From the NCBI GenBank assembly GCA_008632985.1, contig QPGO01000076.1:1-64000 (forward strand): 64,000 nt of DNA, written 5' to 3'. The position numbers and the translations under genes were made by a program. Positions 9,107 to 51,960 of the stretch are shown in pieces. The notes under the pieces were generated by a model that was not told the DNA's origin, did no database searches, and saw only the letters and a program-made list of their open reading frames with translations. The DNA is from Psammoneis japonica (Eukaryota). Within the stretch, counting starts at the first letter, position 1, and every line of letters starts with the position of its first letter.

Positions 9107-10329
9107 TGTTGCTCACAACTTCATCATTACTTTCACTTACGATGATGCCCTGGGCGGCTCTGGTGTCTGAGCAGGAGGTACAGTAGGTACTGTGACAATG
9201 CGAATCACGAGTTAGCAATCGTGCAGCCATTGATGCATGTGGTGTAGGTCTACACTCTATCTTTCTGCGCAGGAACCTCGCATGACCGAGGCAATATGAT
9301 TTTGTCCTTCTCACCTTCCTTTCTACGACAATTTTATCTGAGGTCTTCATCATTTGCGTGCTCGGTGTCTAAAAACAATGACCCTTCAACGACTCATCCT
9401 GCGCTGGTGGGCAACCAAGCCTGGCTCGATGCTTCTGAATCTACAATCCACCCATGCACTGGAAAAAATGTTTGACCAAACGGCCAACAGAGTCCAGATT
9501 GCAGCATCTGAAGCAAGCACCAAGCCAAGCCCAACAGATGAGAGAGTGCCCCAGCTCCCTCAAGCTGACGGGGGTCAGCCCCGGAGCAGCAACGAAGTCA
9601 TGTGCACCTGGCCAGTGCCGCAAACTCTGTGCCAGCAAGCAGCGGGCCCTCAGAGACCCACAGGTGAAAGAGAAGAGAGATTTGCAACTTGCTTTCCAGA
9701 AATGCTGTTCCAAAAAAGTGCTGCTTTTTGAGACAACAAAGCACCAGCTCTGCGGCAGCGACAAGACTGTGTCTGAAAATGCGCTGTTTCTGCCAGCTTT
9801 CCACTCGCACACCCACCCCTGTCTGCTCCACGTGCACATGTGTGAGCCCAGTGAACATTTTGCTGTGACATTGCAGGTCATTTTCCATTGTTGGAAAAAA
9901 GCACCAGGGGTCTGCGGCGCTTTTTCCCCTGTGCCTTTCTTGTGTGCACAGAGCTGCGCGGCATGTTTGCAAGGAAAAGTGCTGCACCAGTTGAGAAAAA
10001 CATCTTTTTGCAGAAGACTTTCCATGCTTCTTTGGCACAAGAGCTGTGGCTGTCAAAGACATGTCAGCTTTTTTTTGTTTGGGCAACATCAGACCTCTTG
10101 TTCTTTGCTGAAACAAAAAGATGCTTGGCGGGGTGCGCCGCTGCGTCAAAAGGTGTTGCCAGCATGACAAAGATGACCTTGGGGAAAACAAGGTAGAAGC
10201 TGCTGCAAAAAAAATCAGCAAGAGGGCTGCAAATCAGAGCAGTGCTGCCAACGGGGCAGAAGACACAGAGCCATCCTTGTGCAGTGTTTTGGCAATGAGC
10301 AGCAGCTGTGTGGCATGTTTTCATGCTTG

Positions 10330-12200
10330 GCTCTTGACAAGAAGAAGACTTCACAACTTTTGTGCCTGTGATTGCACTCTCCACAGGTGTCACAACTTTT
10401 CAAAAGTCTGCAAAGGCGGTTGCTGCAACTGTGACTCTGAACAATGTTCTGACACTGGCTCATTTTCAGCCGCAAATCTGGCACTGCCAATGCCGTTGAC
10501 AGTTTGCAATGTTTTGTTTTGCAGCCCAGCATCTTGTTCAAAGCCCACTCATTTGTCTGGAAAAGCTCAACCCCAGCTGCCAATTGCTTTTTTTGGCACT
10601 TGTTCTGTTGCATGTGTCTCATTGTTGCATCAGGCACCACCACACAACTCAGCTGCCAGTCTGTTGTTTGCATGTTGATGGTGCCCCCTTGTCACAACCC
10701 ACCACCACTGTGTCCTTGTTGTGTGGCTGACACAAAAGAACTTTCCTTTCAAAATGAAACCCTCCCTGAGTGAACCCCAGTTGACAAACAAGGCAGTTGC
10801 AAACTTGAATGCCCCATCATTCCACCCAACTGGTGATGTCAGCTGTGTTCAAGAGCCAGGTTCACAGTGTCAAGCAGCTCCAACAGTTGCCATGTTGTTC
10901 AGCCACTGTCATCATTGGTGCTTCCCAATGTCACAAATGCTCATCAACTGGCTTGCCATCACTGCCACACTGCAATTTAACAATTTTCTGCATCAGCCCA
11001 GATCGGAGCATGGGGTTGTCAATCTGCACTTCATTCAACGCAACTTTGAATCTGATGGTTGACAACAAATGTGCCACAAACACTTTTTGGGGGTGCCAAG
11101 TCATCTGGGCTGACATGACGGCAGTCTCATTTTGTGTTTTGGCCCATGCTTGTGCACTGCACTCTGTTTTGGCTGCAGCGCAGCAGATTTCTCTGCCGGC
11201 GAACACCAAATTAAATTGTTCCCACTGTTTGTGCAGCTCTTCCTTGTTGCTCTTTGAATGCACCAGCTTTGTCCTGTTGCAGAAGATTGCAGAGGGTCAC
11301 TTGGATGTGCCATGCTTGCTCAAGTGCTGGCACCAATGAGTGACAGCTGGCTGCAGCTGAGACTTCAGTGACAGAAAACTTGCCTGACACTAAAGTTTTG
11401 TGTGCAAAGGCCAGCATGGATGACTGATGCCACATTGCAACAATGGCATCATCAACAAGATTGGCCATGAAGACTTGCTCTTGACAACTCACTGCAGCGG
11501 AGCTTACAAAGTGTCAGATTGGAGCTCATTTTTCATTTTGACAATGAAGAACTTTGCCTTGTGTTCAAAGGTGGTGCCTTTTCTTGTTGAGAACAACCCT
11601 CAGAGCTGAGAAGTTGCTCCTTTCTTTGTGGAATGTGGCCTTCAAACCTCCACTCCACACCTTCTCAAAAAGAACATTTGGGGTGTGCTTCTTTTTTGAT
11701 TCTGCTTGCATCCAGGTCAACCATGTGTGATTCTGTGGGCAATTTTGGTTCACGCAGCTGTGCACTGCCCCGTTGCTTCTTTGGTGCATGACCTTGTGTG
11801 TCTCACCACTCTTCCCTGCTGCACTCTCTTCCTTCCTTCCCCTCTGCCACTCCTGTGGATGCACCATCTGCTTTGTTGTTGTTGCCACCAATGTTGCTCC
11901 CAGCAAGGCTGCCCAAGAGAGAGAGAGACCCAAAACAGCACAGAACAAAGACTTCTCTCTTGGCTGTTGTTGCTTGCTGCCATCTAAGCTCTGCATGCAT
12001 TGCAAGGAGTGCCATGTTGCATTGGTCATGCTTGACAGCAATGGTGAGTACAAGAGCATGCTCTGCTTGTTGGGGCAAATCAAACAGCTTTTTTTCTGCT
12101 CAGCAGGTGGCAGTGCTGCAAAATTTAGAGCATCAATTGAGCTGCTCTTGGTTGAACTTTTTTCTTTGGAAGCAGCTGGCAACAAGCTCCTCTGACAACT
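10330..12200. repeat. Degenerate repeat segments re-occurring at about 14430-15650
   Basis: 11570-12160 aligns by eye to 14450-15125 (e.g. GCAAGGCTGCCCAAGAGAGAGA..CCCAAAA; TTTTTTCTGCTCAGCAGGTG..AGTGCTGCAAAA). 10335-10570 aligns to 15325-15565 (CAGGTGTCACAA.TTTTCAAAA; GCCCAGCATCTTGTTCA). Confidence 0.75.
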
Positions 12201-12409
12201 CCTTGGTGCACTGGCAGTTGCTGACTCCTTTTCCACCACACCCAGGACTTGAGCCAAGAAATTCCCATCAGCAGTTGCTGGAGTTGCTCCACATGTCCAG
12301 GTCAGACATGAGCCAAGTCAACTGCAAGGGGGGAGGCTCAAACCACTGAGTTGAAAATTTAGCATGAATGAGTCCACTGCCAGTGACGTGGAAGAGTCCC
12401 ACCAAACTG

Positions 12410-14200
12410 TGTTTGCCACCCCAGGAACACTGCTGCTAGAGGGTTTGGAGTGCAAGCCGTAAGATGGATTCGACAGCAGGGTGGTCGTGCATTGAGCAAT
12501 CGAATGCAACAAACAGGGTGTGAGCAAAAACAACAAACGACAGCTGCACACTCACTTCTGACAACGTGGATGCTCACTTCTGACAACGTCATCAGCAGTG
12601 CACTTTCCCACATGACAATGCACACTCTGCGACAGGAACAAGTGCTCCCGTCTGTGCCACATGGGCCCCCAAGACCTCACCTCCAGATGGAGGGAGTGGG
12701 AAGTTTTCCACAGTTGCCTTCTGTCTTGTAAATCCAAGCCTCCATTCATCCTTTACAACTTCCACCAAAATTGATGAACCTCTCGCATTGAAACAAACTT
12801 CCGCTTTCCATGCACGGGATCATCGCGTTCCTCAACTGCCGCGATCACAAACAAAGCACCAGGTCGAAAAAGAATTTCCGACTCACTCTTGAATTTGGAT
12901 TTTTTCGTCACGTTCACACCCGTTCAACTTTCAATCTTGAAGAGTGCATTCTTGCTCCCACCAAATTTACAACAAGCAACATGCTTTCTCAGAGAGGCAC
13001 TCAAAAAAGCCGGGTCCATCAAGGTGGCTCCAGGACGCAACGAATTGAAACGCGCTCCACCAATGTTGGCACCCCGGTGGACTGTACCTTGAAACACTGG
13101 ACAATCCCGCAACTTGCCTGTCGCCTTGATGACGGCATCCACACGGGCTTTTATTTCCAGACTCAACTTTCCAGAGCGCAAAGCGGAATTCATCTGCTTG
13201 TGGCCACCACCGGTGTGATCCTTCATTGCATTTTTGTCAGTCTCATTGCGATCGAATGTCAGCCGTTTCTTGACAGCGTTTTTCAAAAGCACCAGTGCTC
13301 GCTTTCGTGCCAACTTGATTGTTTTCCGCTCCATCAAACGAGCCTTCAATTCCTCCATGACACCGATCCGTGCAAATGCGAGCTTGATCCAAAAGTGCAA
13401 TTCCCAAATTTTTGAAAGCATCGCCTGCCTGCGAGCTTCTTCACCGCCATTGCATGTGACAATCTGTTGAGAGATGCAAGGAGACAACGAGTTTGTGAGT
13501 TTCTTTTGGGCAGACGACAGGGCAAAATGAACGAAAAACGTAAAGAACAGACAGGTCGAGACGTCCATCTCCAACGGTCCAAACACAAAGGTTTGGCAAG
13601 GCGTTCGCTGAGCCGCAAAAGTTTTGGTGGAAGTGCAAGCAGCAGTGAGTCCTTTCTTCCGAACCAGCCCTGACTCAAGGGTGCCGGATCTGTTCTCGAT
13701 TGACGCACGAGAAGAACGTGACATTTGTGCAGGTGGGCCGCACCCAACAAGCATCATGGGTGAATGCCCCTCGACCCAATCCAACACTTTCTTTTCAGCA
13801 AGCACCAGCATTCAACCGCCGGCCCGCCGCATCAGTGTCGAATGTTCGCACCGCCATTGTCTTTCTGTGTGGTCACAGACGAAAGAGCAACGGCCAGCAC
13901 TGACTTCCCTTCTCAAAGCGCCTGATGAACGAGAAGTGAGAACAAAAGTCGTGTTGTCACCATGTTGATTGATGGGGGCGAGGGCGAGCAATGAAAAGCA
14001 CGAGCTTCGCACCGGGGCTGTTTGATTTTTGTGAGAGACACATTTGCCCGTTGCGTCCTAGCAGGAGAATTGTGCAGAATGGACATCACGATTCAATTGC
14101 GCTCGCCAAGTTTTTCAGCACGAGCTGACGTCACATTCGATTTGAGTTGATCAATTGGACTTAAATCATCCTTCTGGCCTTGTCGGGTTCAGCATCCAGC
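12410..14200 (-). pseudogene. Hypermutated copy of the ~1.8 kb ADP-ribosyltransferase unit (intact-looking copy at 31000-32760)
   Basis: Collinear with 31000-32760. DYTGGGY->DHTGGGH, FLSTS->FLSAS, CGA->TGA premature stop at 12924, terminal TAA->CAA. Confidence 0.9.
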
Positions 14201-14429
14201 ACACATCTACAGTGTCTCACGCATCATGCATTGCTCATCGCTTCTCGAATCACTGTCATGCCATGATGACAGAGACGGATGAGGCCATGTGAAACGTGCT
14301 GCACAAGGAATCCAATCACAGAGAAGGAGGCGCAGGTGGGAAATCTCACAGACCCCATTTGTCAATCATGCCACCTCTTCTCAAAGTGTCAGACAGGTGC
14401 TTGTTTTTTGTTTTGACAACAGAGAACTT

Positions 14430-15650
14430 TGCTGCATGTTTTTAAAGGAGGCACATTTTCTTGTCAAGAGCAACCCGCAGAACAAAGAAGTTGCTCCACC
14501 CATCATGGAACATGGCCTTCAAACATCCACTCCGCAGCTTCAAAAAGAACACTTGGGATGTGCTGCTGCTTTTTTTGTTCTGCTTGTGAACCCAACCCAG
14601 ATCAACCATGTTGTGTGCTTCTGCGGGTGGGGACAACTTTGGCTCACACTGCTGTGCACTGCACCTGTCTTTTCTTTGGCTCTCATGACCTTGCATGACC
14701 ACTCTTTTGTGCTGCACTCTTTTCCTCAAAGTTGCTCTCTGTGTTCTCAAGGCCACCCTTCTTGCACTTCCTTTCCCTCTGTCACTCCTGCGGATGTGCG
14801 CCATCTGCTTTGCTTGTTGCTGTCATTGCCATTGTTGTTGTTGTTGTTGCCCCCAATGTTGCTCAGAGCAAGGCTGCCCAAGAGAGAGACCCAAAATGGC
14901 ACAGGACAAAGACTTGTCTTGACTGTTGTCGCTTGCTGCCATCTGAGCTCTGTGTTCATTGCAAGGAGTGCCACACTGTGCTGGTCAGACTTGACAAAAA
15001 TGGCCAGTGCAAAAGCATGCTCTGCTTGCCAGCACAAATCAGGCAGCTCTTTTTTCTGCTCAGCAGGTGACAGTGCTGCAAAACTTGGAGTGAGAGCCAA
15101 TTGAGCTGCTCTTGGTCAAACTCCATGGTGTGTGGGGCTCTTGCATTTTCTTGTGCGTGCTTTTTGTTGCTGGCCTCTGTTGTCACCAAGGTGCTTGCAA
15201 GATGCAGCTGCAACTTTCTCCAACTTGTTTTGTGGATGGGACAGGAGACACACTGCTTTGTTTTCTCCTCCAGAGAGGAGCTGTCTGCAACATGTTTTTT
15301 GACAAGAATGACAAGAAGATCAATTGACAAGAAATGAGCTTCGCACACATGCAATTGTGCCATCTGCAGGTGTCACAATTTTTCAAAAACCAACCAAGGT
15401 GGCAAAACAACACTTTGATGCTGAGACATTTTTGGCCACAAATCTGGCATTGCTTGGGTTGTCATTTGGGCTGACAGTCAATTTTTCTGGCTGTCACTGA
15501 TCTGCAACATCATGTTTTGTGGCCCAGCATCTTGTTCAGAGTTGACTCATTTGTTTGAAAGAGCTTTGGCTCAATTGCTCATTGCACTTCTTTGTGTTTC
15601 TGCTGAATTTGTCTTTTTGTTGCATGGGGCACCACCACACAAATCAGCTG
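14430..15650. repeat. Second copy of the degenerate segments at 10330-12200
   Basis: Shared blocks as listed for 10330-12200; segment order is swapped. Confidence 0.7.
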
Positions 15651-16539
15651 CTGATCTGCTTCTTGCGTGACAATGGCGGTGTGTGCTGGTGTCCTTGCTT
15701 GTCACATTTCTGACACAGTGGAGAGACTCTCCTCTCAAAACAAGCTCTTCATTGAAGCAAGCCTTTTTTGACAGACACCACAATTGCAAACTTGAGTTCT
15801 TGCCTTCCGCCCAATGTCCACTTGCACTCCATGGCCCTGCTCACAATGTGAGGCAGCTGTCATGATTTGTCACATCATCGTTTGACCCTTGTTGCCACCC
15901 ACACTTCCTGTTGCCACAAGAAATGCCCTTGCATGTTCTTGCAGTCTGTGTTTGCCTGTGGCAGTGGATTTCTCTGGAGGCAAGTGCCAAATGGCATCAA
16001 CTGTCTGTGCAGCTCTTCACATTGTTGATCTGTGAGTGTGCCAACACTGTCTCTTGCAGATTGCAGAAGACTGTGCAGAAAGTTGTTTCAGATGCTGTGC
16101 TTGTCAAAGTGCGGGCACCAATTTGCTTTTGTCAGACAAAAGGACAGGCACTCACTGTGCTGTGCCTGGCTCCAAGACCTGGGCTGCATGAGTGGCAGCT
16201 GCAACCAAGGCTTTGTTGGAGACAGAAAGCCTGTTTGACATTGGGGGGCTTTGTGCAAAGGTTGGCAGGGATGGTTGGTCGCATGTTGCAGAAGCTGTGT
16301 CAACGATGAAATTTTTTCCAACTCGTGCACTGGCCCATCCTCCCATGAGATCTGGACTTGGTGAAACTTCAGACCAGGACAAAAAAAAATGGAGGATGGC
16401 TTGCCACTCTTCATTTCTTCTGACAAAAAGAATCTCATTTCAAAAATGCCACCACAAATGTTTCCATTCTCCTCATGACATTTTGCTGCACAACTCTGTG
16501 TCTTTGTGCTGACAGCATCAGCGCGGTGCTCTTTGAAGC

Positions 16540-17140
16540 TTTGCTCAGCCACTGCCATCCAGCAATCAAACCTTTGAACATGCCAGTTTGCTGCCATGGG
16601 GAGCAAGGTGACAAGAGGCCACAATGCCACAAGATCAACCTTCCTTGCAGCGCTCATTGGCCACAGCTTCAAAGGCTTGTCTGGGGTTGCCCAGGTGCGG
16701 CCAGTGTCAGCATCCTCAGCATGCTGTTGTCAGATTCATTGGTGCCATCACAGAGTCCTTTTGCTGTGGAGCTTGGAAGTCTGCGCTGCTGGTGGGGACA
16801 AGGTGACATGGGGTCACAACCACACAAACAGGCTTGGTGCTGCTCAACCATGTGGTTGTTGCAGCATCACCTGAGATTCACCAGAGGCCACCAAAGTCCC
16901 CAGCTTGCTGTCCTCACATTGACTGGCACCATCATGGGGTCTCTTCATTCTGGAGTTGGGAGTTTGAATTGCACTTCTGGCCAAAAGGACATGACAGGGT
17001 GCACAACTGTGCCATGCCAGAACTCTTGCACTGCTCAGCCACAGCTCTCAAATTGTTGCTTGGATCCACCAGAGACTGCCAGTGCCCTCAGCCTGCCATT
17101 GTTGCTCCTGGGTTGGTTTCCTCAGGTGTTGGTGCCATCA
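16540..17140. repeat. Degenerate internally repetitive element, related to 33410-34050
   Basis: Recurrent motifs CAAGGTGACA..GG.CACAA..CCACAAGATCA.CC and TGCCAGTGCCCTCAGC.TGC..TTGT in both regions. Confidence 0.65.
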
Positions 17141-18341
17141 TGTGGGGAAGTCTGGGCCAACCTGCTGGGGACAATGAGTCAACATGTGGCCAGCACACAA
17201 CAGTGCTGGCAAAGGCAACCACTTGTCAGGGAGGAGGAATGCTGGCAGGATGTTCTGCAGCTGCGGCGCTCCTGTGTCTGTGGGTTCTGCTGCTCTGGCT
17301 GTTTGCAGGCCCACTTCCAGCACAGCTTTGACCAGCTGGTTTCTTGCTCAACCAGCTCTCCCTGCTGTCTGGCTGCAATCACCTGCACAGCCAGCTCCAT
17401 GACCTCTTTTGCCTCTCTGCCTGAAAGTTTCAATGGGCTGCAAAGATCAGCTGCAAAAGCAGCCCCGCAGACAGAAACAAATGTTTGGACAAGCACAAAT
17501 GTGAAAATTTCATTCACAACAAGAGCCTGCTGAGATGACAAAAACTGGGACACCAGCCTTCTTGAAAACCATGCGCTGCATCTGACTGAATCAATTCCAA
17601 ACCTGGCTGCATCCAACAAATGAGAGCTTGCAAAAAGTGCCCAGGACTTTGCACACACCAACAAAAAAAAGCCATGGGAAAGTCAAGAGGCCAGAAGTGT
17701 GAAAAAAGAGCAGGCAGCTCACAGCAAACAACAACAAACTGATGCTTTCCTTTCATGATTTTTTCATTTATTTGTTGAAACTCAGACAAGCAGTTGACAA
17801 AAACAGCAGCCAAGATGAGAAACAAAGTGCTGCAATTGCACACAGGTGGGCAGAAACAGCAGCATTGTGCCACACTTGCCAAAGAAAACATGCCAAACTG
17901 ACAATTCTCTGCATGTCTTCTCTGCCAGGGATCTTTGTCGCAGTGTCTCACAATGAATTGCTGTCACTGAAGCTGACTCTCTTTGAAACATGAAAGATTG
18001 GAGCACAGCATGATGCCAGCTCAGCCAAGAACACCCAGAGATGCAAGACAGCCTCCAAGAGACAATGGGAAAGACAGTGGGGCTGCAGCTCAAAGAGCAG
18101 AGGGGGCAAAGGCAACAGAATGGCAGCACAGGAAAAGAGCACGCACTAAACATCAAACAATGTCAGGTCAGAAAGTGAAGTGACAGGGGCCTCAGGCCTG
18201 TCAACTCTGGCCAAGAAGAAGGTGGCGAGAGGATCTCAGCTTGTAACCACAACATTCTTTACTGGAGTTGACCCTCTAGAGAGAAGTTTTAATTTGCACC
18301 GCAAGCTGCATTCAGTGGCACTTATTTTAGTTGCAATCCTA

Positions 18342-30999: not shown

Positions 31000-32760
31000 T
31001 ATGTTGCCATCCCCGGAACAATAGGGGTTGCAGTACGAGCCGTAAGATGGATTCTAATAGGTTAGCGCGAAGCTATGTCATACAAAAAAGAGGTTGCGAG
31101 CGAATAAATAGCGAATGGTAATTCTCTGTAAATGTGGATACTCACTTCTGACGACGTAATTAGTAGTACACTTTCCCACATAACAATACACACTCTACGA
31201 TAGGAATAAATAAGTACTCCCGTCTATGCCACATGGGCCCCCAAGGCCTCACCTCCGGATGGAGGGAGCGGGAAGTTTTCTATAGTTACCTTCTATCTTA
31301 TAAATCCAAACCTCCATTCGCCCTTTACAACTTCCACCAAAATTAATGAATCTCTCGCATTGAAACAAACTTCCGCTTTCCGCACACGGGATCGTCGTGT
31401 TCTTCAACCGCCGTGATCATAAACAAAGTACCAGGTCGAAAAAGAATTTCCGACTCACTCTTGAATTTGGATTTTTTCGTCACGTTCACACCCGTTCGAC
31501 TTTCAATCTTGAATAGTGCATTCTTGCTTACACCAAATTTACAATAAGCAACATGCTTTCTCAGAGAGGTACTCAAAAAAGCCGGGTCCATGAAGGTGGC
31601 TCCAGGACGCAACGAATTGAAACGCGCTCCACTGATGTTGGTACCCCGGTGGACTGTACCTTGAAACACTGGACAATCCCGCGACTTGCCCATTGCCTTG
31701 ATAACAGCATCCACACGGGCTTTTATTTCCGGGCTCAACTTTCCAGAGCGCAAAGCGGAATTCATCTGCTTGTAGCCACCACCCGTGTAATCCTTCATTG
31801 CCTTTTTGTCAGTCTTATTACGATCGAATGTCAGCCGTTTCTTGACAGCGTTTTTCAAAAGTGCCAGCGCTCGCTTTCGTGCCGACTTGACTGCTTTCCT
31901 CTCCATCAAACGAGCCTTCAATTCCCCCACGACATCGATCCGTGCGAATGCGAGCTTGATCCAAAAGTGCAATTCCCGAATTTTTGAAAGCATCGCCTGC
32001 CTACGAGCTTCTTCACCGCCATTGTACGTGACAATCTGTTGAGAGATACAAGGAGACAACGAGTTTGTGAGTTTCTTTTGGACAGACGACAGGACAAAAC
32101 GAACGAAAAACGTAAAGAACAGATAGGTCGAGACGTCCATCTCTAACGGTCCAAACACAAAGGTTTGGTGAGGCGTCCGCTGAGCCGCAAAAGTTTGGGG
32201 GGGGAGGTAGCAAGTCGTTTTTCAACCCAGTCCTGACTCAAGGATTCTGGATCAATTCTCGATTGACGTACGAGGAGAACGTGATATTTGTGTAGGTGGG
32301 CCGCACCCGACGAGCATCAAAAGTAGAAACTCCTCGTCCTAATCCAACACATTCTTTTTAGAAAGCACCAGCGTCGTTACCCGCTGGCCCGCCGTATCAG
32401 TGTCGAACGTTCGCACCGCCATTGTCTTTCCGTGTAATCACAGACGAAAGAGCAACGGTCAGCACTGACTTCCCTTCACAAAGCGCCTGATGAACGAGAA
32501 GTGAGAACAAAAGTCGTGTTGTTTTCCGTGTTGATGGAGAGAGCGATGAAAAGCGCGAGCTTCGTATTGGGGCTGTTTGATTTTTGTGAGTGACACATTT
32601 GCCCGTTGCGTCCTGGTAGGAGAACTCTGTAGAATGGACATCACGATTCATTGCGCTCGCCAAGTTTTTCCGCACGAGCTGACGTCACATTCAATTTGAG
32701 TTGATTAATTGGACTTAAATCATCCGTCTGGCCTTGTCGGGTTCGGCGGCCGCCACATCT
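31000..32760 (-). repeat. ~1.8 kb ART-containing unit, direct-orientation duplicate of 12410-14200
   Basis: Continuous alignment from AGCCGTAAGATGGATTC to CTGGCCTTGTCGGGTTC; no TIR/TSD seen. Confidence 0.9.
31343..32158 (-). CDS. Cholera-toxin-like (R-S-E clade) mono-ADP-ribosyltransferase of the VIP2/C3/ART type
   Basis: YT...Y..MNSALR helix, V(H)RG catalytic Arg, FLSTS, LFKI, ESEILF (E-x-E). Probable intron ending CTCAC...CAACAG at 32036, so the true start is uncertain. Confidence 0.85.
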   Translation of the reverse strand: MFGPLEMDVSTYLFFTFFVRFVLSSVQKKLTNSLSPCISQQIVTYNGGEEARRQAMLSKIRELHFWIKLAFARIDVVGELKARLMERKAVKSARKRALALLKNAVKKRLTFDRNKTDKKAMKDYTGGGYKQMNSALRSGKLSPEIKARVDAVIKAMGKSRDCPVFQGTVHRGTNISGARFNSLRPGATFMDPAFLSTSLRKHVAYCKFGVSKNALFKIESRTGVNVTKKSKFKSESEILFRPGTLFMITAVEEHDDPVCGKRKFVSMREIH

Positions 32761-32769
32761 CACGCATCG

Positions 32770-35700
32770 CATCCACCATGACATCAACATGTGGCCGAGT
32801 TTTGCGAACAGTGATGCCAACAAGACTGCATGTGATCCACGCATGTCATGTTCTAGAGCAAATGTCAGAGGGCAGGTGCTTTGGAGTTTTCAAATCAACT
32901 GAAACACAGAGGGAGCACATCAGCAGGAGAGAGGAGATGTTTTTTGTCACTCGAAAAGAGCTCTGGGGGGGGGGCTTTGGCTGCTGCTGCATGTGTGCAG
33001 TTGCTTGTAATTTGCACACTTCAATGCTGTGCATGAAGGGTCCGCCAATGTTGTTCATGTTGCTGGAAGAGATTGTGTGGTGTGATGCCAAAGTTGACAG
33101 AGCATGTTGTGTGTGCGGCAATGCAGATGAGAGCTTTGGAAGAGGAGCCAAGCTGTTCATGTCATTGGTGTCAGCAGCCAGTTTGTGAAGTCTTTTTGTC
33201 ATTCTGAGGACTCCTCCCAAGCATTGAGGATCCTTTTGGCCAACTTGAGCTGTTGCAACAACAGCTTCTGTGGTGCCAGGTGTGTTGCAAATGAGGCAGC
33301 AATGGAGAGTCATGAACTCAGCACTTCCAAAGCTGTGAGCATGACCAAAGGACAAGGAGCAGCGCAGGGCATGGGCTTGGTTTTTCAAGCATTGCCTGTG
33401 GTCCACCAGAGATTGCCAATGCCCTCAGATTGCTGTCATCATGTTGGTTGGCACCACCACCCTTTCACTCTGGAGTTTAGAAGATGCTGAAGTTTGCTGC
33501 TGTTGGGGACAAGGTTGTGTGGGACCACAAAACCACAAGGTTGGTTTTGCAGAGCTCAGCTGTGCTTCCCAAAGTGTCACCTGGGAGACAGATTGGTTGG
33601 CATCATCCTGGGGTCTTTTTGCTGCAGAGTTTGGAAGCTCAAATCTGCCACTGCTGGCAACAAGGTGGCACGGGGCCACAACACCACAAAAGGTCAACAA
33701 CCTCCATCTGCCCCCCCCCGCGCAGGAATTGCCAGTGCCCTCAGCTTGCTGTTGTCAGGTTGGGCAAGGCTGCTGCAGAGCGCAAGGTGACATGTGGTGC
33801 CACAAAACCACAAGATCAGCCCAGTGATGTGCTCAACAATGCCTCTCAAAGTGTTGCCTGGGGTCTGCCAAAGACTGCCAGTGCTCACAGCTTGCTGTTG
33901 TCAGGTTGTTTGGTGCTGTTGTGGGGTTCCTGCAGTCAAGTTCAGGCATTGTTTAAGTCCACTGTTTAGTTGAGAACAAGGTGACATGGGGCCAAAAAAT
34001 GATCATGTCACAAGATCAGCCTTTTGCGATGCTCAGCCACAGCTCTCAAAAGCACCACCCAGTTGAGAAAAACACCAGGTGCAACTTGATCAGGAAACAT
34101 CCAACTCCTTTTTTATGAAGACAAAAATCATTTTGAAGAAGGCAGTCAAATGGCTGACAGCTCAACATGTTTTTCTTGGTGCTGGTCTGCACAGTTTCTC
34201 TGCAAAATGACTCTGCAATGCAGAAGATTCCTGCTGAAAAAAAAAAAACAAAAAAATGAAAAATCTTAAAATCACCAGGTGCATCAACAGTTGGCGATGA
34301 TGGCAGCACATTGTGCTCAGCGCCAAATGTGAAAATGCTTGCACAGTGGCATGTGGTCTCAGGTGCAGATGGTGCTGTGGCTGGGGCTGACCCATTGTGC
34401 TCGTGTGAAAGACAACCCAGTGTGCAGATGTGTTGTGTTGAGGTTGAACAATGTCTGTGCATTTCATCTGGTGCAAAAGACAACTTTGCAGCTGAGTTTT
34501 TCCAAAGAAAAAACAAGAGAAAGCACACAAAGAAGAAATGGTGTGACACCAGAGAGCCCCACTTCTCCAGCAACAACTGGGGGGCTGGCTTGTGAGCTGG
34601 GCACTGAACTGCAATGCTGTGACACCAGGCATGTGCAAGGCTTTTTTTGCATCATCACAAAGGTGTGTGGACACAGTGCTGAGCACCCAGCCCTGCTTGT
34701 TTGCTGTGTGGGGCAATGCACTGTGTTTCATTGTGGCAACCTCCAAATGGCAAGAATGAGGGGTTGCATTCTTGCAAAGAGCACCGGCAGTGGTTCTCTC
34801 ATTGCTGACACAATGGGCTGCCCCCCAGACATGAGAACTTTCCTGTGGGTGTCTTTCACAAAAAGCGAAGCTTGCCCTGCCTTTTGAAACACACAAGCCT
34901 TTGCCATCAGCTGCAGCGGCACCCATTTTGATGACTCAATGTCTTTTTCCTCTGCACCAGCTGACGGCGGTTTATGAAAAATTGGCTTTTGGTGTTTTGG
35001 CTGTGAGTTTTGCCCCCCACAAAGTTTTTGTGGGCTTTCTGTTGTTGTCTTGTTGTGGGTCTTTTAGCAAACCAAGCCTTCACAGCCGCACATTTTCTTT
35101 CTGCCTCCAGGCAGCCTTACCCAGCTGAGATGCCACACACATGTGCAAGGGCACTGCACCCAGCGTCACTTCACATTGTCTCTCCCCCCCTCACTGCGCA
35201 CCTTTGTCTGTTGAGCAATGCTGCAAAGCTTGCTTTTGCTTCCACTGTGTTTGCAGGAACAACGCAGCAGCTGCAGGCTGCACACTTTGCTGCCTGGGTG
35301 CAGCTTCTTTGACTTTGACAACTCAAACCTGGGGGGGGGGGGGAGCACAGCTGGCACAGTGAAAGCCTCTCTCTCTCTCTCACACACACACACACAAGCA
35401 AGCAAACAAACAAACAAATGAACAAAATTGGCAAAGCCCATTCTTTTTTTGTCAAATGTGACAAACAAGTGGACAGAAAGCAGCCAAGGTGAAGCCAACT
35501 TGGTCAGATCTTTACCCAACTGATTGGCAAATGGCAGGCACAACAGCATTGGCCAAAGTCAGGAGTGAAGTTTTCGTGGGGGCTTCATCAGCTGCTGCCT
35601 GCTGCTGTTGTTGACGTGTGGTGGTGGTTGAGGCTGTTGTGTCAAACAGATCCAAGGTGCAGCTGTTGCTGGGGGGGAGGACAGATGGGTGGATTCGAAG

Positions 35701-35830
35701 GACTGGTTTTCAAATCTGTCGCGGGTCAGTCCTCTCTCTCGTGATGCGGCTCCTCTCTAGCCCACCAGAGAGCAGCAATAGTCTGCTGCCAGCAGCTCCA
35801 GACACAGAGAGCACAGTGGGTCTAGAGAGG
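32770..35830. other. TpA-depleted hypermutated block 2
   Basis: Very few TA; Tyr-poor overlapping ORFs; contains the 33410-34050 repeat and a (CT)n(CA)n run at about 35366-35396. Confidence 0.85.
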
Positions 35831-39700: not shown

Positions 39701-40045
39701 AGTGAAGTCTTTCTGACTGTAATGACGAACGATAGTGCAGCTAAGAGAAAAAGTCGGACGCTATTCACAGCGTCATTGCCGCGATCGCAGAAATTTTAGC
39801 AGAAACACATACAGAAAAAATCGCTTTTACTGTACTGTTACAGTAAAAAACCGAATTGAGTCCTTATTTTTGCCATATGTTGAATCGCCATTTTTTGCCT
39901 CACATTGCCCTAAAAACTGACCACCTAGCTTTTCATCATGTTTAAACAAGTTCTTTGATGACAGTTGGTTGTGAAAAGGGCTTGGGATTAGGTCTGGTTT
40001 CTTGCGACCTCCGAGCATTGCACGCAACACACTGCGAAGCGTCCA

Positions 40046-40577
40046 ATGCACAACTCTTTGAATGGGCTCTTAACTCTCTGTGTGCTTGGTTTGAAATGCA
40101 ACGAGCGACTGAGTTTCGCCATTTTTTGTTGTGAATGCATGCTGCCTCCACCAAAGTCTCTGGAGTCATCTCATGTCATTTTTGGGCACTTGCTGAATCC
40201 AAACCTGCTTGAACATTGCAGCGCTCTGTTGGCATGTCTGCCAGCATGTTGATGATGATTCCAACAAGCCAGAAGGTCACGAAGAAGTCCCAGTTGCAGA
40301 TTTGGGATTTGCAATGAATCTGAGTGGGCATGAGGATGTTGTTCACGGAGGTGTTCTTGCCTTGATCATTGAAGATTCCATGGGTTTTGCTTTTGAATCA
40401 GCGGGAACACACGTGGCCTTTGCAGCCAATCCAAACATCAACTGCTGCCATCAGTCCCCGCCAGTGTGTCTGCCGTGCTGCGGATGCATCACAAGGAATC
40501 CAAACGGAAGTGTGTTGTGTGCCAAAGGATCAAGCCTTTTCATTTTGCCAAAGGACCAAAGTCAAAGTGATGGATGA
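40046..40577 (+). pseudogene. Hot-dog-fold (PaaI/THEM4-like) thioesterase pseudogene
   Basis: LSGHEDVVHGGVLALIIEDSMG...AFAANPNINCC corresponds to family motif GH..VHGG..A..D..G...T.NLNINY; frameshifted. Confidence 0.7.
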
Positions 40578-43500
40578 CTCAAGTGACATGCTGCAATTGA
40601 GCTGCAAAGCCAGAGATTGCTTGATCCAGTTGAGTTTTGAACCCTTTGTCAAGCACAGCAAGGCATGCATTTGTCTGTTGCAGATGCTTTGAACACTGTT
40701 CAATGCTTGTGAATCTGCTGCAGCTCTTTACAGAATTGCTTCATTGTGCGCAGTGCGCAGGCAGCTGTCTGCTTTTTTTATGATGGCATGCACTCCAGTT
40801 GTTGTTGCCCTTGAACCATGTGGTTGGAATTGTTTGCACTGCCCAACTGGGGCAGTTGGTTTTGTTTCAGGACAAACAACACTTTGAGAAAGTCTTCAAG
40901 AGTCAGACGCTCTTGGATGCCCAAAGAACACATGAGATTGTCCATGCATTCACCCGATGGTTGGTTGGTGCTGTTCACAAAGGCGCAACTCATTGCCCAT
41001 CACACATCAAAGCATGAGAGCATTCCCTTGTGTTCATGAGCGTCGTGGAGAAAATGTCCAACAGTGCATGGCAAAATGTCTCCACCAGCAAGCAGATGCA
41101 CAATTCTGCACCAAAGACCATTTGAAGTGCGCAGCGTGCAAGCCACTTGATTCTCACCTGCTGAAGCTTGCTTTGACCAGCGCGACAGAGTCCAAATGTT
41201 GCAGCTTGACCAACAAGCACAGGAAACGTTGAATGGTTGCTCAGAAGACAGAGTGGGAAGGTGCACACAACTCTCCTCAAAACAAAATCTCTTTGATGAA
41301 TCCGGTGACAAGAGTGAGGAGCGCCACCATCAGCAAAATGTGCAAAATCATTTGATTGTGAATTTCAAGATGTTGTTCATTGCTCGAACAGAAGAGTTTA
41401 TTTTGTCATCCAAACAGCGTCATGACAATGTGATTGGAGGAGAAACTTGTGTGGCTTTCATCACGTCCATCTGAGTTGTCCATCAGAGTTCCCAAACAAA
41501 CCATGGGTGTTGCCGTCAAAATGCCTTCGACCACTCAGAGTGGTGTCAGTGACCAGTCAAAAAGCAAGGAAAAGCTGGTTTGGTCAGCACTCCAGTGCAA
41601 GGCATTAAAGTCGAAAGAGTTGTGAGTGAGAAGCAGCCCAACAAGCGCAATCACGGATGCAACCACCAATGCAAAGAGTTGCGACACTGAAACCACATGT
41701 GTCAGGGGAACGCCAGTTTGGCTTTTTTTGTCACTCAAGGGATTTGCCACCAAGGGCGCTGGATTGGGGTGGAGGAGCATGGTGACTCTTTGCATTGACA
41801 ACACCAACAGCAGCAACCACAGTTTTGGCTTCATTGTGTCAGTTTTGATGCCACAAGGGAGAGCAACATGGAGGCTGTTGCACCAAAACCACACAAGCTC
41901 TTTTTTTTTTGGATGCTGCGATTGTTGCTGCACAACAACACCACTTTTTTCACCACAGTCAGGGTGTTTTTCACAATTGACAAAAGTTTCAATCGCCATG
42001 CCCAATTTTGTCAACAAACAATGCAACCCACAAGATTGTTTGATCCAACATTTTTGTTTTTGTCAGTTGGCTTGTGCTTTGTGACTGCCAAAATTTTGCT
42101 CACATTTTTTCGTTCATTGCATCGCCGCCATTTCAGCTGCAAAAAACCATCAGCAACACTGTCACACACTCCTCTTTGTGACATGGCTGGGTCATCGTTC
42201 CTCTCCTTCCGCTGGCTCAAAGTCGTGCAGGGGGACCGGCCATTTACGTCCGTCGAAGAAGCAGCATCAGAACTCAGTCAAAAGTGGTCAAAGAAAGTCG
42301 CCGTCTTGAAATCCGTCATTGTCCACCCACGTTCCTGCATCAACACACGCCCCTCCTGCTGCCAGGGTTCATCCCATCCCCCTCACCACTGGTGGGGGTG
42401 CAGCAGGTTGCTTTGTGTGTTGTGACGGCTGTTCTGACCTTGCTGCCAGGGTTCATCCCATGGCTCCCTTTTCTACAGTGGGTGCAGTGATGTCTGTGGA
42501 TGCTGCCTTTCACAAGTTTGTGGTGATGTGTCCCACGCTCCTTCCTCACTTTGGAGGCACAGCCGCCAGATCCCACTCTTTCTTGGCTTGCGTGCCGGAG
42601 AGTGCGCTGCCAGGGTTCATCCCATGACTCCCACCTTTGGCGGGGGTGCAGCTGTTTTTGGATCCCCCCTTGTCTTGATGGATGGCACTCACGATGGTTT
42701 GACTGGTGTTGGCTTTCCACCTGTTGACGGCTCTTCTGGGTCCTTCATGGTTCCTCCCAATGCCAACCCAGTTGTGCATGGTCCGGCACCTGCCAATTTT
42801 TCTGTGCAAACTCCCCTCATGTCCCCTCTGAACCTGTCCAGCATCCCCCAGTCTGCACGTTCCCAATGGAGGGGGCTCAAGAACATTGGCATGGTCTGCG
42901 AAGAACCCAAACCCTCCTGTTGGAAGAAAATGTCACATCATCCGTGTTCACTTCGTGTTGCCAAATCTTGACAGCGGTCAGGCATTGGTGCACATTGACG
43001 GCAAACACTGTCATCACATGATGGCATGCTCAGATCTTCACAGAGCTGTTGTGGCATGTTGTTGAAATGGCAACATCTCATTTGACATTTGCTTGCTGCA
43101 CAAGAATCACCGCAACGACAGCCATCGCGTTGTCAATGCAGGTCACCCCATCCTTGATGGATTGTTTCAAGGCTTTGTCCAAGAAAGCCAGCAAAACTCC
43201 CTCCACCTCTTCTTCCTCCTCTGGCACCACTCATCAGTCACTGGGCATGTACAAGGATTGTGGGTGCACTTCTGCCACATGCACAGACCAGACAAACTCC
43301 CACAGTGGAGTGTCCATTGGTTGTGTCTGGAAAGTTCATGATCCGTTGTGCTTTCTGCCTTCTCATTGGAGTTTTGGACTGCACAAAACAAGTGCAACAC
43401 ATCCCATGGTTTGATCCTGGGGAAGTTTTGTTGTCCGCCTCAAGCCAATGCTCAAGGCGGGTGGCACTTGAGGTCCATTGTGCTCCAGTGCACTGACAGA

Positions 43501-43979
43501 ACATCATTGATCATGTGCCGCAACTGTGCAAATGTCAGTGGGATTGAGGCACAGACGGAATGGGCATGCGTCAGTGTCAGAATGTCTGGGTGAAGCTGCA
43601 ATTTTATTTGACTGTTTCAGCCAATGGGAGTGTGTGTGCCAGGAATTTAAAAAGCGACTTCTTGTGCAAAAACCCATGAGAACAGGTGTGTCTTCTCAAA
43701 AGGTCACATTGGAGAGTTGTCACTTCTTCATGATGGAGCACACATGCACCATGCCGAACATGCATGGACAAGGGACCGCACCATGCCAAAGCATGGAGAG
43801 GGATGAGGTGAGTTTGAAATCAGTGAAATGCAAGCCTGTGGCAGTTGACTGACAACCATTGAGGCTCAATGGGGACGGTGCAGGGATGAGACAGTTCACA
43901 GGACAATGCACAGGTTGAAACCGTTGTGCAACAAAGCAGCAGTTTGGCAGTGATGAGAGGGACTCTCACATCATCATTG

Positions 43980-44800
43980 ATGGAAGAACAAGATGACATG
44001 ATGAGCAAACGACAAAAGAAAAAGCGACACAACAAAAAATGAATGACTGAGACAAGATTGTCTTGGAGAACTGCTGCAAGAAGACATTGTTCAGACAGCA
44101 CAAGTTTCTGAATGACAAGGCCCTGAACGACAGCAAGGGAAGAGTGGTGGACACAGTGCTGTCCAAGCCAAATGCACCCAAAGAAAAGAGAGCGCAAATT
44201 TGGGGCATGTCGAAGGACAAGGTGTGAAGTGCGAAGGCAGACAACAAGGAAGAGGAACATTGTGAGTGGGAAAATGAAGAAAGAATTTTTCAGCAAGTGA
44301 TGGAGTGACACGAAAATGGTGGCATGAAGAACAACTGACACACGTGGTTTCATGTGTTGCGAATGGACAGAGGGTGTCTGGATCACAACAAGAAGAACCC
44401 ACAAGGAAAAGACAAGATGCTGACTCTGGCAGAAATGCAAGAGGGAAGGGACTGCATGATGGCACAGACACATTTCACCCTCCACTTCCTGCCCATCGTG
44501 GTGGGAAAGACATGTTGGCATTGGCGAGCAACAAGGCATTCGGCCTGCCAATTTTGGAAAACAATTGGGACAAATGGACATGCACGCACAGTGGGATGAA
44601 GGAGAAGTTGAAGGTGACAAAAGAAGCAAGCATGCTTCTGGCTTCCGGACCCTGAGCACAGCAGTGGGAAGGGCTGAGAAGCAAAACGGAACCATGGGTG
44701 GAACAAGAGCAGACTGCTGGATGGGTGCAAAACCAACAAATTGCTTGAGGACATCTGCAGAATCCACACGTTTTTGCACCAAAGCTGTTGTCTTCTCAAA
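43980..44800 (+). pseudogene. Degraded coding remnant, possibly transposon-associated
   Basis: Protein-like fragments KIVLENCCKKTLFRQHKFLND, LHFLPIVVGK and SNKAFGLPILENNWDKW across frames; family not identified with confidence. Confidence 0.35.
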
Positions 44801-51774: not shown

Positions 51775-51960
51775 GACAAATTGATGACAGACATGGACAT
51801 GTCCGGAAGAACCACCACTGCCATCATTGCAAGGAGCACCAAGCACCACCGTCATTCCATCTGCTGACAAAGAAATGGATTGTCCCAAATTGTCACCTTC
51901 CACTTCTTGGAATCAGCTGACAATGAAACAGATTTTCCAGCTGAGTCACGGAGCGCTTTT
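51775..51960 (-). pseudogene. Hypermutated, rearranged 3' fragments of a propeller-gene paralogue
   Basis: EGDNLGQSISLSADGMTVVLGAPCND matches 47580-47700; 51909-51960 matches 47490-47543. Confidence 0.8.

Follow-up and report, generated by a model that had tools for sequence, protein, structure and literature searches.

Probable domain-confined hypermutation of TpA in inserted and duplicated DNA on a contig of the diatom Psammoneis japonica

The closest described system is found in Bigelowiella natans, where integrated viral DNA is hypermutated from TpA to CpA or TpG (Mettrop et al., bioRxiv 10.64898/2026.01.13.699255). According to that preprint, 124 TpA-depleted, CpA+TpG-enriched clusters are spread over the genome, TpA-depleted coding sequences are enriched in reverse transcriptase domains, and de novo changes of TpA to CpA/TpG arise in mutation-accumulation lines at about 6e-7 per site per generation. 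In Phaeodactylum tricornutum, LTR retrotransposons are reported to carry CpG methylation (PMC2806351) and transposable elements to be controlled by DNMT5a (PMC9998398), and in dinoflagellates 5-hydroxymethyluracil, which preferentially replaces thymine in TA and TC, is linked to the silencing of transposable elements (PMC11572971). No report of TpA-specific hypermutation in diatoms was found in the literature searched, which lacks most subscription journals.

The contig QPGO01000076.1 of P. japonica, of which positions 1 to 64,000 were analysed (the window, 64 kb), contains four TpA-poor blocks as called by two-state segmentation (Table 1), which together make up 31.5 of the 64 kb (49% of the window). 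Values of rho TA are 0.04-0.06 in the blocks, where 96 TpA remain in all, and 0.51-0.61 in the normal segments, which also keep rho CG near 1, while the G+C of the blocks is about 0.49. The block borders are sharp and lie 180-575 bp from neighbouring genes, with no tRNA gene, as a candidate border element, within the 64-kb window. The host genes between the blocks, all short intergenic DNA, copy B and the left part of copy C are unaffected, and the seven normal stretches between long ORFs have rho TA of 0.48-0.85, so that protection is not due to coding selection. The block targets recognised are an LTR retrotransposon of the copia type and two segments duplicated from host genes; Pfam matches are lacking for 90 of the 97 block ORFs, and Pfam identified none of these ORFs as viral. 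Stop codons are rare in the TpA-free DNA (TAA 1.4 per kb against 9.5 in normal DNA; TAG 0.8 against 9.4), and this loss of TAA and TAG explains the spurious long ORFs of the blocks, ORFs of at least 120 codons numbering 30.8 per 10 kb against 13.8.

As in B. natans, the change from A to G or T to C is confined to TpA, giving CpA or TpG according to the strand, and is found in discrete regions, in part recognisably of inserted DNA, with normal DNA adjoining; long-term clusters poor in TpA and rich in CpA+TpG are likewise common to both. The two cases differ in host (a chlorarachniophyte from the Rhizaria there, a diatom here, to which the nearest protein clusters of the host genes also point), in degree (rho TA 0.45 in an active NCLDV region there, 0.04-0.06 in the present blocks) and in extent (124 clusters per genome there, four blocks occupying about half of a single window here). 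They differ also in targets, which here are an LTR retrotransposon and host-gene duplicates with no viral gene recognised, and in the fate of CpG, which is lost too in the present blocks and is mentioned nowhere in the main text of the preprint. De novo mutations were observed in B. natans, whereas the present window offers before/after pairs that record the order of events.

Table 1. Blocks, duplicated copies, genes and repeats in the 64-kb window
Feature	Position	Strand	Description
Block 1, contains copy A	9447..18121		8675 bp; 22 TA; rho TA 0.04, CG 0.30, CA/TG 1.75
Block 2	32720..35756		3037 bp; rho TA 0.06, rho CG 0.20
Block 3	39993..46499		6507 bp; rho TA 0.04, rho CG 0.35
Block 4, to window end	50754..63999		13246 bp; rho TA 0.05, rho CG 0.53
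Copy A, hypermutated	12410..14208		10 TA, 92 CG; rho TA 0.09, rho CG 0.82
Copy B, normal DNA	31003..32760		69 TA, 114 CG; rho TA 0.57, rho CG 1.16
ORF in copy B, intact	31343..32140	-	265 codons + TAA; hydrophobic N-terminus; R, STS, ExE motifs
ADP-ribosyltransferase pseudogene in copy A	12771..13568	-	in-frame TGA 12924-12926; former stop = CAA 12771-12773
Direct repeat R1, left of copy A	11503..12160		pairs with R2
Direct repeat R2, right of copy A	14378..15124		pairs with R1
Copy C	49666..51599		left part (to 50752) normal DNA; right part inside block 4
Copy D	62062..64000		hypermutated throughout
Dead Ty1/copia LTR retrotransposon, in block 4	55623..61930	-	5-bp target duplication GTCTG on both sides; rho TA 0.07, rho CG 0.64
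LTR 1 of copia element	55623..55857		TG...CA ends
LTR 2 of copia element	61696..61930		same element

Copies A and B form the duplicate pair of an ADP-ribosyltransferase (ART) gene in which conversion was first suspected, and the pair is real: blastn aligns 12557-14208 with 31125-32760 at 89.15% identity over 1659 columns, fainter homology continues leftwards to 12410 in A and 31003 in B, and in purine/pyrimidine coding it reaches 12198-12292 and 30892-30988, while the right end of copy B adjoins block 2. The full alignment comprises 1464 identical columns, 165 mismatches (132 transitions and 33 transversions) and 30 gap columns. Among the aligned TpA of B (n=57), 27 are CA, 19 TG, seven TA and four other in A, while the reverse change (TpA in A against CA/TG in B) occurs once; the CpG of B (n=105) are CA in 20 cases, TG in eight, CG in 73 and other in four. 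Transitions from B to A affect 41.2% of sites within TpA and 5.0% of other A/T sites (odds ratio 13, p = 2e-23), and 13.0% of sites within CpG and 3.4% of other C/G sites (odds ratio 4.3, p = 3e-6), and this context-resolved comparison finds transitions spread unevenly, not evenly, over the dinucleotide contexts. The 75-base example of the original prediction is exact, with ten TA in 31134-31208 and none in 12566-12640, where nine of them are CA/TG and one is TC. The accompanying claim that other substitution types are uncommon holds per available site, but fails in absolute count, as these make up about half of the mismatches: approximately 74 of the 165 belong to the two context classes (TpA and CpG) changed in A, and the remainder consists of the transversions and about 58 other transitions, ten sites being CpG lost in B and not in A. 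Five CA-vs-TG double differences are present, against a rough expectation of one or two from CpG decay in both copies, and copy B may therefore not have escaped conversion entirely.

The intact ORF of copy B is predicted to encode a secreted ADP-ribosyltransferase, as its protein matches the Pfam profiles ADPrib_exo_Tox (47.0 bits) and ART (46.9 bits) and has the profile and motif features of R-S-E ADP-ribosyltransferases in HRG, LSTSL and SESEI, which we take to be the Arg, Ser-Thr-Ser and Glu-x-Glu motifs. The damage that had been predicted for copy A is all present: KDYTGGGYKQ and LSTSL of B are KDHTGGGHKQ and LSASL in A, the in-frame TGA of A corresponds to CGA at 31496-31498 of B (minus strand), and the CAA at its former end to the natural stop TAA at 31343-31345. 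In the pseudogene Tyr is replaced by His or Cys and STS by SAS, the TGA precedes the ExE motif, and the sequence read through with X scores 25.0 bits against ADPrib_exo_Tox, compared with 47.0 for B. Polarity is based on protein outgroups, ORF integrity and dinucleotide context. A search at E up to 0.001 gave three protein homologues of copy B (identity 40-44%, about 41%), and the ORF of B ends where these homologues end; at the informative protein differences between the copies, B matches the outgroups at ten sites, A at three and neither at 19, and the Tyr, Thr and Phe residues kept in B and changed in A are common to the outgroups. When metagenome contigs were scanned for a DNA-level outgroup under the guidance of the copy-B protein, 462 pattern matches but no relative came up, and a 38-base pattern taken from the stretch of highest conservation was matched exactly at 0 loci.

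The raw pair by itself is symmetric, as TA in B faces CA/TG in A at 46 sites, and it could be read in the opposite direction, with the CA/TG of A ancestral and B mutated from C to T at CpA/TpG to give TpA, in the manner of the repeat-induced point mutation (RIP) of fungi, which prefers CpA. The RIP of Neurospora makes TpA from CpA (PMC7296669). However, the rho TA of B equals the background level, the unrelated flanks of A are TpA-free as well, and such a reading runs against the intact ORF of B, its TAA at the end of the homologues, the outgroup-shared Tyr, Thr and Phe and the Pfam scores. The block indices are moreover the inverse of those of RIP, with TpA/ApT of 0.00-0.18 and (CpA+TpG)/(ApC+GpT) of 1.5-2.2 in most bins, and RIP leaves the sites with CG in B and CA/TG in A unexplained; reversed polarity is thus improbable in the extreme. 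Since it combines an intact ORF and natural stop with the better outgroup and Pfam fit and a background TpA level, copy B is probably close to the ancestral state, a proxy for the state before conversion and not the ancestor itself, having lost about ten CpG of its own and leaving the 33 transversions of the pair unpolarised. The present case shares with fungal RIP a context-dependent transition hypermutation, stops in repeated or mobile DNA and blocks of skewed composition, whereas RIP makes TpA from CpA and here TpA is destroyed, the mutated base pair being A:T. RIP also mutates both copies of a duplicate, while here A and D are converted and B and the left part of C are spared, which means that homology alone is not the trigger, and the G+C of the blocks shows no fall.

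The view that copy A lies in a hypermutated block and is nearly saturated, B having largely escaped, is upheld by the TpA-free flanks, the state of the ORFs, the outgroups, the Pfam scores, the second pair and the direction of change observed in the mutation-accumulation lines of B. natans. The flanks of copy A, which are unrelated to it, contain eight TA in 2751 nt and two TA in 3913 nt. Their rho CG of 0.14-0.20 is far below the 0.82 of copy A, which is therefore a young arrival in an old block. Taken together, copy A probably records a DNA-level hypermutation confined to domains, in which TpA is changed in place and almost completely to CpA/TpG in silent inserted or repeated DNA and CpG is lost more slowly.

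In sequencing run X1, depth over copies A and B is 170-437, against about 56 elsewhere, which hints at further family members, summed contig depth not being equal to a copy number. Run X2 resembles cDNA, since stretches of 103 and 89 bases with CT..AC ends are missing from its contigs in a phosphoglycerate-mutase-like gene; X2 leaves most of block 1 uncovered and covers copy B thinly, absent cover not being evidence of silence.

Copies C and D are an independent replicate of the one-sided change in A and B. The left part of copy C takes in the DNA upstream of an FG-GAP repeat gene together with the 5' part of that gene. Over the pair, 37 of 40 TpA of C are CA/TG in D with no reverse change (odds ratio 59 against other A/T sites), as are 46 of 86 CpG. 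In both pairs, transitions affect 1.5-5% of A/T sites outside TpA and 1.9-3.4% of C/G sites outside CpG, and each pair has 26-33 transversions plus indels. Only two CA-vs-TG double differences occur in the right part of the second pair, where about 17 are expected if the copies were converted independently, and this part was therefore converted before the duplication; the left part was converted only in copy D, after it. Also in the right part, 13 CpG were lost in D and three in C, though both lie in blocks, and these counts agree better with a burst on the copy that was new than with a steady decay of methylated C. Where transposable elements are silenced, methylated CpG decays, which accounts for the change of CpG to TpG/CpA and for its confinement to silent blocks but leaves TpA untouched, and the CpG loss of the second pair looks concentrated on the new copy.

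The copia element is dead, with fragmented ORFs in which RVT_2 exceeds its curated cut-off, while gag_pre-integrs and SH3_retrovirus fall short of theirs. Its LTRs differ at 27 positions, all of them transitions with no transversion, and are 88% identical in plain letters and 99.2% in purine/pyrimidine coding. Since the LTRs were identical at insertion, conversion took place in situ after the element had inserted. CA-vs-TG double differences number seven in the LTR pair, where about five are expected if each LTR was converted independently, and 14 in R1/R2, where about 14 are expected. No further old repeat pair beyond the blastn set was found by self-comparison of the window in purine/pyrimidine coding. 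As in-frame TpA-free DNA cannot encode Tyr, this residue was used as a marker of converted relatives of the copia integrase, and Tyr content gave no sign of any among the 120 matches listed of 269: Tyr is at least 1.5% in 113 of the 120 and below 0.5% in one, in which His is not raised. The closest match among those listed is 47-52% identical.

As one target is a retrotransposon, the changes might have been introduced in RNA: an ADAR-like activity that prefers a 5' U would have hyper-edited A to I in double-stranded transcripts, and the edited copies would then have been reverse-transcribed and integrated. The 5'-T preference is similar to the one that the Discussion of 10.64898/2026.01.13.699255 notes for ADAR. 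Such a route is contradicted by the LTRs, whose 27 transitions arose after integration, by the equal effect on both strands within one element, by the inclusion of DNA without signs of retrotransposition and of a segmental duplicate spanning the upstream region of a gene, and by element ends and block borders that do not match. It is extremely unlikely, and although ADAR shares the change of A to G with a 5' U/T neighbour, it acts on double-stranded RNA, whereas here the substrate must be chromosomal DNA, given that the LTRs grew apart only once inserted and that the effect covers entire domains.

An artefact of sequencing or assembly would mean that modified bases, for example at TpA and CpG, were miscalled and that the blocks are not truly TpA-free. 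Some long-read basecallers make systematic miscalls at modified motifs, and the blocks are the kind of DNA in which heavy modification is expected. Contigs assembled separately from a public run, which possibly comes from the same culture as the assembly and is thus not fully independent, nevertheless agree with block 1 at every base over 14142-14961 (820 bases) and 15528-16208 (681 bases), and differ from it by one letter and one gap over 16186-16825, at a word depth of about 56. Symmetric miscalls would yield mixtures of TA, CA, TG and CG rather than the removal of about 95% of TpA, the transversions and indels between the copies are true divergence, and Illumina data on mutation-accumulation lines of B. 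natans gave this signature too (10.64898/2026.01.13.699255). An artefact is therefore very improbable.

The changes are one-sided, tied to dinucleotide context and later than the insertion or duplication. Both strands are converted about equally and site by site, as TA became CA in 47 cases and TG in 36 (p = 0.27), and runs tests for strand clustering of the CA and TG outcomes detected no strand runs (z = -1.6 and -0.7), and hence no evidence of processive single-strand action. In a sequence newly arrived in a block, TpA is converted first and CpG later, TpA being lost several times faster than CpG. Hypermutation by AID/APOBEC is likewise inflicted by the host as transitions on mobile DNA and is viewed as a defence. 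However, the deamination of C by APOBECs takes place in single-stranded DNA, as a rule in the course of reverse transcription, and leaves strand-biased G to A changes in TC/CC contexts, whereas the main change here is at A:T in TpA, strand-symmetric and later than integration. An APOBEC-type signature is not seen, with C/G transitions outside CpG at only 1.9-3.4% and strand runs lacking.

In the proposed process, A would be changed to G on either strand at TpA until hardly any TpA remains, and CpG in the same domains would pass to TpG/CpA at a slower pace. We infer that targeting is set by the chromatin or silencing state and not by sequence homology, and that CpG loss reflects deamination of 5-methylcytosine in methylated silent DNA. 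For TpA, a putative enzyme would deaminate adenine to hypoxanthine in double-stranded DNA, which would be read as G at replication, and this enzymatic adenine deamination is our leading guess, tentatively held. In the blocks, genes are destroyed by new TGA stops and by the change of Tyr to His or Cys, spurious long ORFs appear through the loss of TAA and TAG stops, and the divergence of LTRs is inflated.

As TpA reads the same on either strand, a change of A to G is inseparable from one of T to C on the opposite strand, and thymine-directed chemistry fits the sequence equally. A TET/JBP-type 5-methylpyrimidine dioxygenase, with the same targeting, might oxidise T in TpA and possibly 5mC in CpG, after which mispairing or misrepair would give T to C and C to T. 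A single enzyme class would thereby cover the collapse of both self-complementary pyrimidine-purine steps to CA/TG: TpA and methyl-CpG both consist of a 5-methylpyrimidine followed by a purine, both are lost in the same blocks, and copy D lost them together, with more CpG gone than in the older block DNA of C. Oxidised thymine is able to mispair with G. A TET/JBP enzyme of dinoflagellates makes 5-hydroxymethyluracil (PMC11572971), which offers a parallel, since transposable elements in an alga of the SAR group are there acted on by a thymine-directed enzyme that prefers TA (and TC); the modified base serves as an epigenetic mark, for which no rewriting of the sequence is reported. Against the oxidation of thymine, 5hmU pairs with A and near-complete conversion of T to C by it is not known, no TpC signal accompanies the low rate of other A/T transitions (1.5-5%), and the much slower loss of CpG is explained simply by methyl-C deamination. 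We regard oxidation of thymine as unlikely and keep adenine deamination as the preferred chemistry. On a wider and rather doubtful view, an old defence enzyme common to diatoms and chlorarachniophytes, and SAR-wide, would act on the double-stranded DNA of silenced domains, converting TpA and methyl-CpG to CpA/TpG either as a DNA adenine (and cytosine) deaminase or as a 5-methylpyrimidine oxidase, and any DNA landing in a marked domain would be erased within a short evolutionary time.

For annotation, these results mean that TpA-free DNA yields extra ORFs mostly without a family match, and that LTR divergence greatly overestimates insertion age here, given the gap between identity in plain letters and in purine/pyrimidine coding. 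With its before/after pairs, LTR pair and border-spanning duplicate, the window is a natural assay for context preferences, relative rates and the order of events. We know of no natural enzyme that turns A:T into G:C at a defined dinucleotide of double-stranded DNA, and a putative enzyme with this action would be relevant to base editing. If the present reading is true, this process, so far described in a single preprint of 2026 and in a rhizarian alga, would reach the stramenopiles as well, which points either to convergence or to an ancient system common to both. If it is true genome-wide, a major group of ocean primary producers would defend its genome by mutation, in a mirror image of RIP that is run to saturation.

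Four TpA-depleted blocks, delimited by a 1-kb dinucleotide profile and a two-state segmentation on TpA, sum to 31.5 of the 64 kb of the window (see the table). They are enriched in CA/TG (1.59-1.81) at a G+C content of 0.48-0.50, whereas the four segments between them have a rho TA of 0.51-0.61 and a rho CG of 0.87-1.00. The blocks occupy long gaps between host genes and end approximately 180-575 bp from them (ORF ends compared with the segmentation). The genes of the normal segments are those of RING finger, His_Phos_1, PhyH, DUF4336, GcpE, RWD and FG-GAP repeat proteins, and for two host proteins Bacillariophyta is the commonest phylum of the nearest protein-atlas clusters (scores 0.98 and 0.97); the host is, with moderate confidence, a diatom. 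Seven normal stretches between long ORFs have rho TA of 0.48-0.85 and rho CG of 0.73-1.06, and the normal composition is thus no by-product of coding selection. The ORFs of the window are long and mostly intron-poor, with introns of 74-103 bases; contigs of X2, a run recorded only as 'DNA?', skip three stretches with CT..AC or GT..AG ends, which resemble introns spliced out of the phosphoglycerate-mutase-like and GcpE genes.

Features of the window, with positions on the forward strand
Feature	Positions	Strand	rho TA	rho CG	Remarks
Block 1	9447-18121		0.04	0.30	
Block 2	32720-35756		0.06	0.20	
Block 3	39993-46499		0.04	0.35	
Block 4	50754-63999		0.05	0.53	to window end
Copy A	12410-14208				ART gene
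Copy B	31003-32760				ART gene
Tandem duplication	12552-12590				CTCACTTCTGACAACGT x2, in copy A
Repeat R1	11503-12160				direct repeat, left of A
Repeat R2	14378-15124				direct repeat, right of A
Copy C	49666-51599				
Copy D	62062-64000				runs past window end; length a lower bound
FG-GAP frame	46978-50304	minus			1108 codons
DNA repeats in FG-GAP frame	48854-50036				tandem, 72-79% identity
FG-GAP_2 remnant	51502-51912	minus			23.2 bits, in block 4
Ty1/copia element	55623-61930				235-bp LTRs, TG...CA ends; flanked by exact 5-bp target duplication GTCTG
Stretches skipped in X2	18766-18868, 18974-19062, 24700-24773				

Copies A and B, which carry an ADP-ribosyltransferase (ART) gene, are a real duplicate (blastn of 12557-14208 against 31125-32760, 89.15% identity over 1659 columns), and their homology, weaker, reaches 12410/31003 in a global alignment and stretches to 12198-12292/30892-30988 in a search recoded to purines and pyrimidines (RY coding). 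The original prediction presented the pair as a before-and-after record of conversion, and the sites it named are exact: 31134-31208 of B holds ten TA, of which nine correspond to CA or TG and one to TC in 12566-12640 of A, where no TA is present; DYTGGGY and STS of B are DHTGGGH and SAS in A; a CGA of B is TGA at 12924-12926 of A (minus strand); and the stop codon TAA of B (31343-31345) is CAA in A (12771-12773). In the core alignment, 1464 columns are identical, 165 are mismatched (132 transitions and 33 transversions) and 30 contain gaps. The 57 aligned TpA of B are represented in A by 27 CA, 19 TG, 7 TA and 4 other dinucleotides, and its 105 aligned CpG by 20 CA, 8 TG, 73 CG and 4 others. 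The reverse TpA change is found at a single site (TA in A, TG in B), and CpG is lost in B instead at ten sites (CG in A, TG/CA in B). From B to A, the transition rate is 41.2% at TpA positions against 5.0% at other A/T (odds ratio 13, p=2e-23) and 13.0% at CpG positions against 3.4% at other C/G (odds ratio 4.3, p=3e-6), so that transitions are unevenly distributed over contexts. The accompanying claim that substitutions of other types are rare holds only with a qualification, as about 74 of the mismatches fall into the TpA and CpG classes, the rest being the transversions and about 58 other transitions; the identity of 96.8% in RY coding likewise indicates that the two copies have also diverged by ordinary substitution. 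The short tandem duplication of copy A, which B lacks, sits where the strong homology begins on the left.

Copy B appears from its sequence to be near the ancestral state. It contains a 265-codon ORF with a hydrophobic N-terminus, ending at the position where its three database homologues end, and scores 47.0 bits for ADPrib_exo_Tox and 46.9 bits for ART in Pfam, while copy A, with its stop read through as X, scores 25.0 and 44.8 bits, respectively; in A, a TGA precedes the ExE motif and the natural stop is gone. Of the protein differences with an aligned outgroup residue (protein-level outgroups), 10 show an outgroup match in B, 3 in A and 19 in neither copy; a further differing site has no outgroup residue and stands outside this count. 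The B-matching sites include the leading Tyr of YTG, which is Y in each of the three outgroups, the Thr of STS, and Phe and Thr residues common to all three. The ART unit probably has further genomic copies, able to polarise the changes. A reverse, RIP-like polarity is contradicted by the data. The proposal that A was nearly saturated in a hypermutated block and B largely escaped is supported, as A lies inside TpA-free block 1 and B in normal DNA, with its right end adjoining block 2. The unrelated flanks of A, of 2751 and 3913 nt, hold 8 and 2 TA, respectively. The rho CG of A is 0.82, against 0.14-0.20 in the flanks, which shows that A came recently into a block that is old and depleted of both dinucleotides.

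Copies C and D form a segmental duplicate (91.7% identity; 97.6% in RY coding) that covers the 5' portion of the FG-GAP repeat gene together with upstream DNA; C is normal to 50752 and in block 4 beyond, and D is converted over its whole length. The 40 TpA of C are 20 CA, 17 TG, 2 TA and 1 other in D, 46 of the 86 CpG of C are CA/TG in D, and the opposite state, TA in D facing CA/TG in C, is absent from the C/D alignment. In the left part, transitions affect 47.9% of TpA positions versus 1.5% of other A/T (odds ratio 59), and 26.6% versus 1.9% at CpG. The right part is TpA-free in C and D alike, with the same CA or TG at nearly every site. A CA-versus-TG double difference is the mark of one ancestral TpA converted independently in two copies, and only 2 are observed where about 17 would be expected if about 35 ancestral TpA had been converted independently, which indicates that conversion of this part preceded duplication; that of the left part followed it and took place only in D, the copy that landed inside a block. 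In the right part D has lost 13 CpG and C 3, though both are in blocks, suggesting that the newly arrived D took a burst of both TpA and CpG change. The FG-GAP frame contains many FG-GAP repeats parted by Pro/Ser-rich linkers, with tandem DNA repeats inside it, and the FG-GAP_2 remnant upstream of this intact gene is probably an old converted paralogue fragment.

The Ty1/copia LTR retrotransposon is complete but dead, with gag-pol in at least seven ORF pieces in different frames and an integrase ORF containing one Tyr and 34 His in 416 residues. Its ORFs match RVT_2, which passes the cut-off, as well as gag_pre-integrs and SH3_retrovirus, both of which stay under their curated cut-offs, and one homologue is labelled Cylindrotheca fusiformis. 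The LTRs of one element are identical at insertion; these two now show substitutions at 27 positions, every one a transition, and 7 double differences against about 5 expected. Their divergence of about 12% in plain letters falls to 0.8% in RY coding, so LTR-based dating would be badly inflated. The direct repeats R1 and R2 (about 650 bp; 75-82% identity, 85% in RY coding), which bracket A but not B, have 14 double differences, against an expectation of about 14; they could be a pre-existing repeat array that received A, or else the two ends of some larger element. The double differences in the LTRs and in R1/R2 show that insertion precedes the change, which takes place on chromosomal DNA. The data contradict an editing of RNA with subsequent retrotransposition.

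The conversion of TpA to CpA/TpG is one-sided, context-specific, post-insertion and strand-symmetric, with a slower loss of CpG to TpG/CpA. The strand outcomes are about equal (47 CA to 36 TG, p=0.27), and runs of CA or TG outcomes are absent (z = -1.6 and -0.7). Loss of TpA outpaces that of CpG, at 81% versus 27% in A and 93% versus 53% in D. The base 3' of the changed A in the pairs is C at 33 sites, T at 23, A at 14 and G at 10. The 96 TpA surviving in the blocks are enriched in TTA/TAA (5' T in 46% versus 23% in normal DNA) and poor in ATA/TAT (7% versus 26%; chi-square 69, p=6e-15), a hint of a context preference that reaches beyond the dinucleotide; the tetramer most often seen among them is TTAA (18 of 96). 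Conversion stays within sharply delimited domains of DNA that appears to be silent and inserted or repeated, and duplicates outside such domains are spared; targeting would be by chromatin or silencing state and not by homology.

A sequencing artefact is contradicted by the data. Contigs built independently from X1, a public run with a word depth of about 56, show no differences from block 1 over 14142-14961 and 15528-16208, and one differing letter and one gap over 16186-16825; over 6618 bases of neighbouring genes, 20 letters and 9 gaps differ. As X1 possibly derives from the same culture, this agreement is better suited to excluding quirks of assembly or polishing than to providing independent biology. 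The summed X1 contig depth is 170-437 over both ART copies (12780-14113 and 30789-32779) versus about 56 over neighbouring genes, and a single X1 contig connects 13772 with 32462.

As TA is part of both TAA and TAG, these two stop codons are almost gone from the blocks (1.41 and 0.78 per kb on both strands versus 9.54 and 9.36), and only TGA, the third, is kept. They carry 97 of the 142 window ORFs of at least 120 codons (30.8 versus 13.8 per 10 kb), and 7 of the 97 have any Pfam match (E up to 0.001), 3 of these under the curated cut-off. Many overlapping long ORFs without family match thus lie on both strands of the blocks, where gene finders will over-predict.

In the mutation-accumulation lines of Bigelowiella natans, two integrated viral regions account for 231 of the 302 nuclear single-nucleotide mutations, and 230 of the 231 are A to G or T to C, all on TpA; the genome contains 124 TpA-depleted, CpA+TpG-enriched clusters, for which the authors proposed an ADAT2-like DNA adenine deaminase (bioRxiv 10.64898/2026.01.13.699255). 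Enzymatic adenine deamination in DNA is the leading though tentative reading of the TpA change here, and the CpG change may be methyl-cytosine deamination; in Phaeodactylum tricornutum, LTR retrotransposons carry CpG methylation (PMC2806351) and transposable elements are under DNMT5a-dependent control (PMC9998398). Thymine oxidation would alter the same dinucleotide and is rather improbable. A dinoflagellate TET/JBP enzyme makes 5-hydroxymethyluracil, linked to transposable-element silencing, and an older observation places this base preferentially in TA and TC (PMC11572971). TpA being its own reverse complement, adenine deamination and thymine oxidation are inseparable by sequence alone. The signature here matches that of B. 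natans, which belongs to a different eukaryotic supergroup. In the literature searched, the signature is described only in that preprint, with no report for diatoms, and the main text of the preprint makes no mention of CpG, retrotransposons or stop codons. The present case is a real, new and unusually complete instance of a process so far known from a single preprint; it adds the loss of CpG alongside TpA, a retrotransposon and gene duplicates as targets, conversion close to saturation, and a record, within the window itself, of the order in which events took place.
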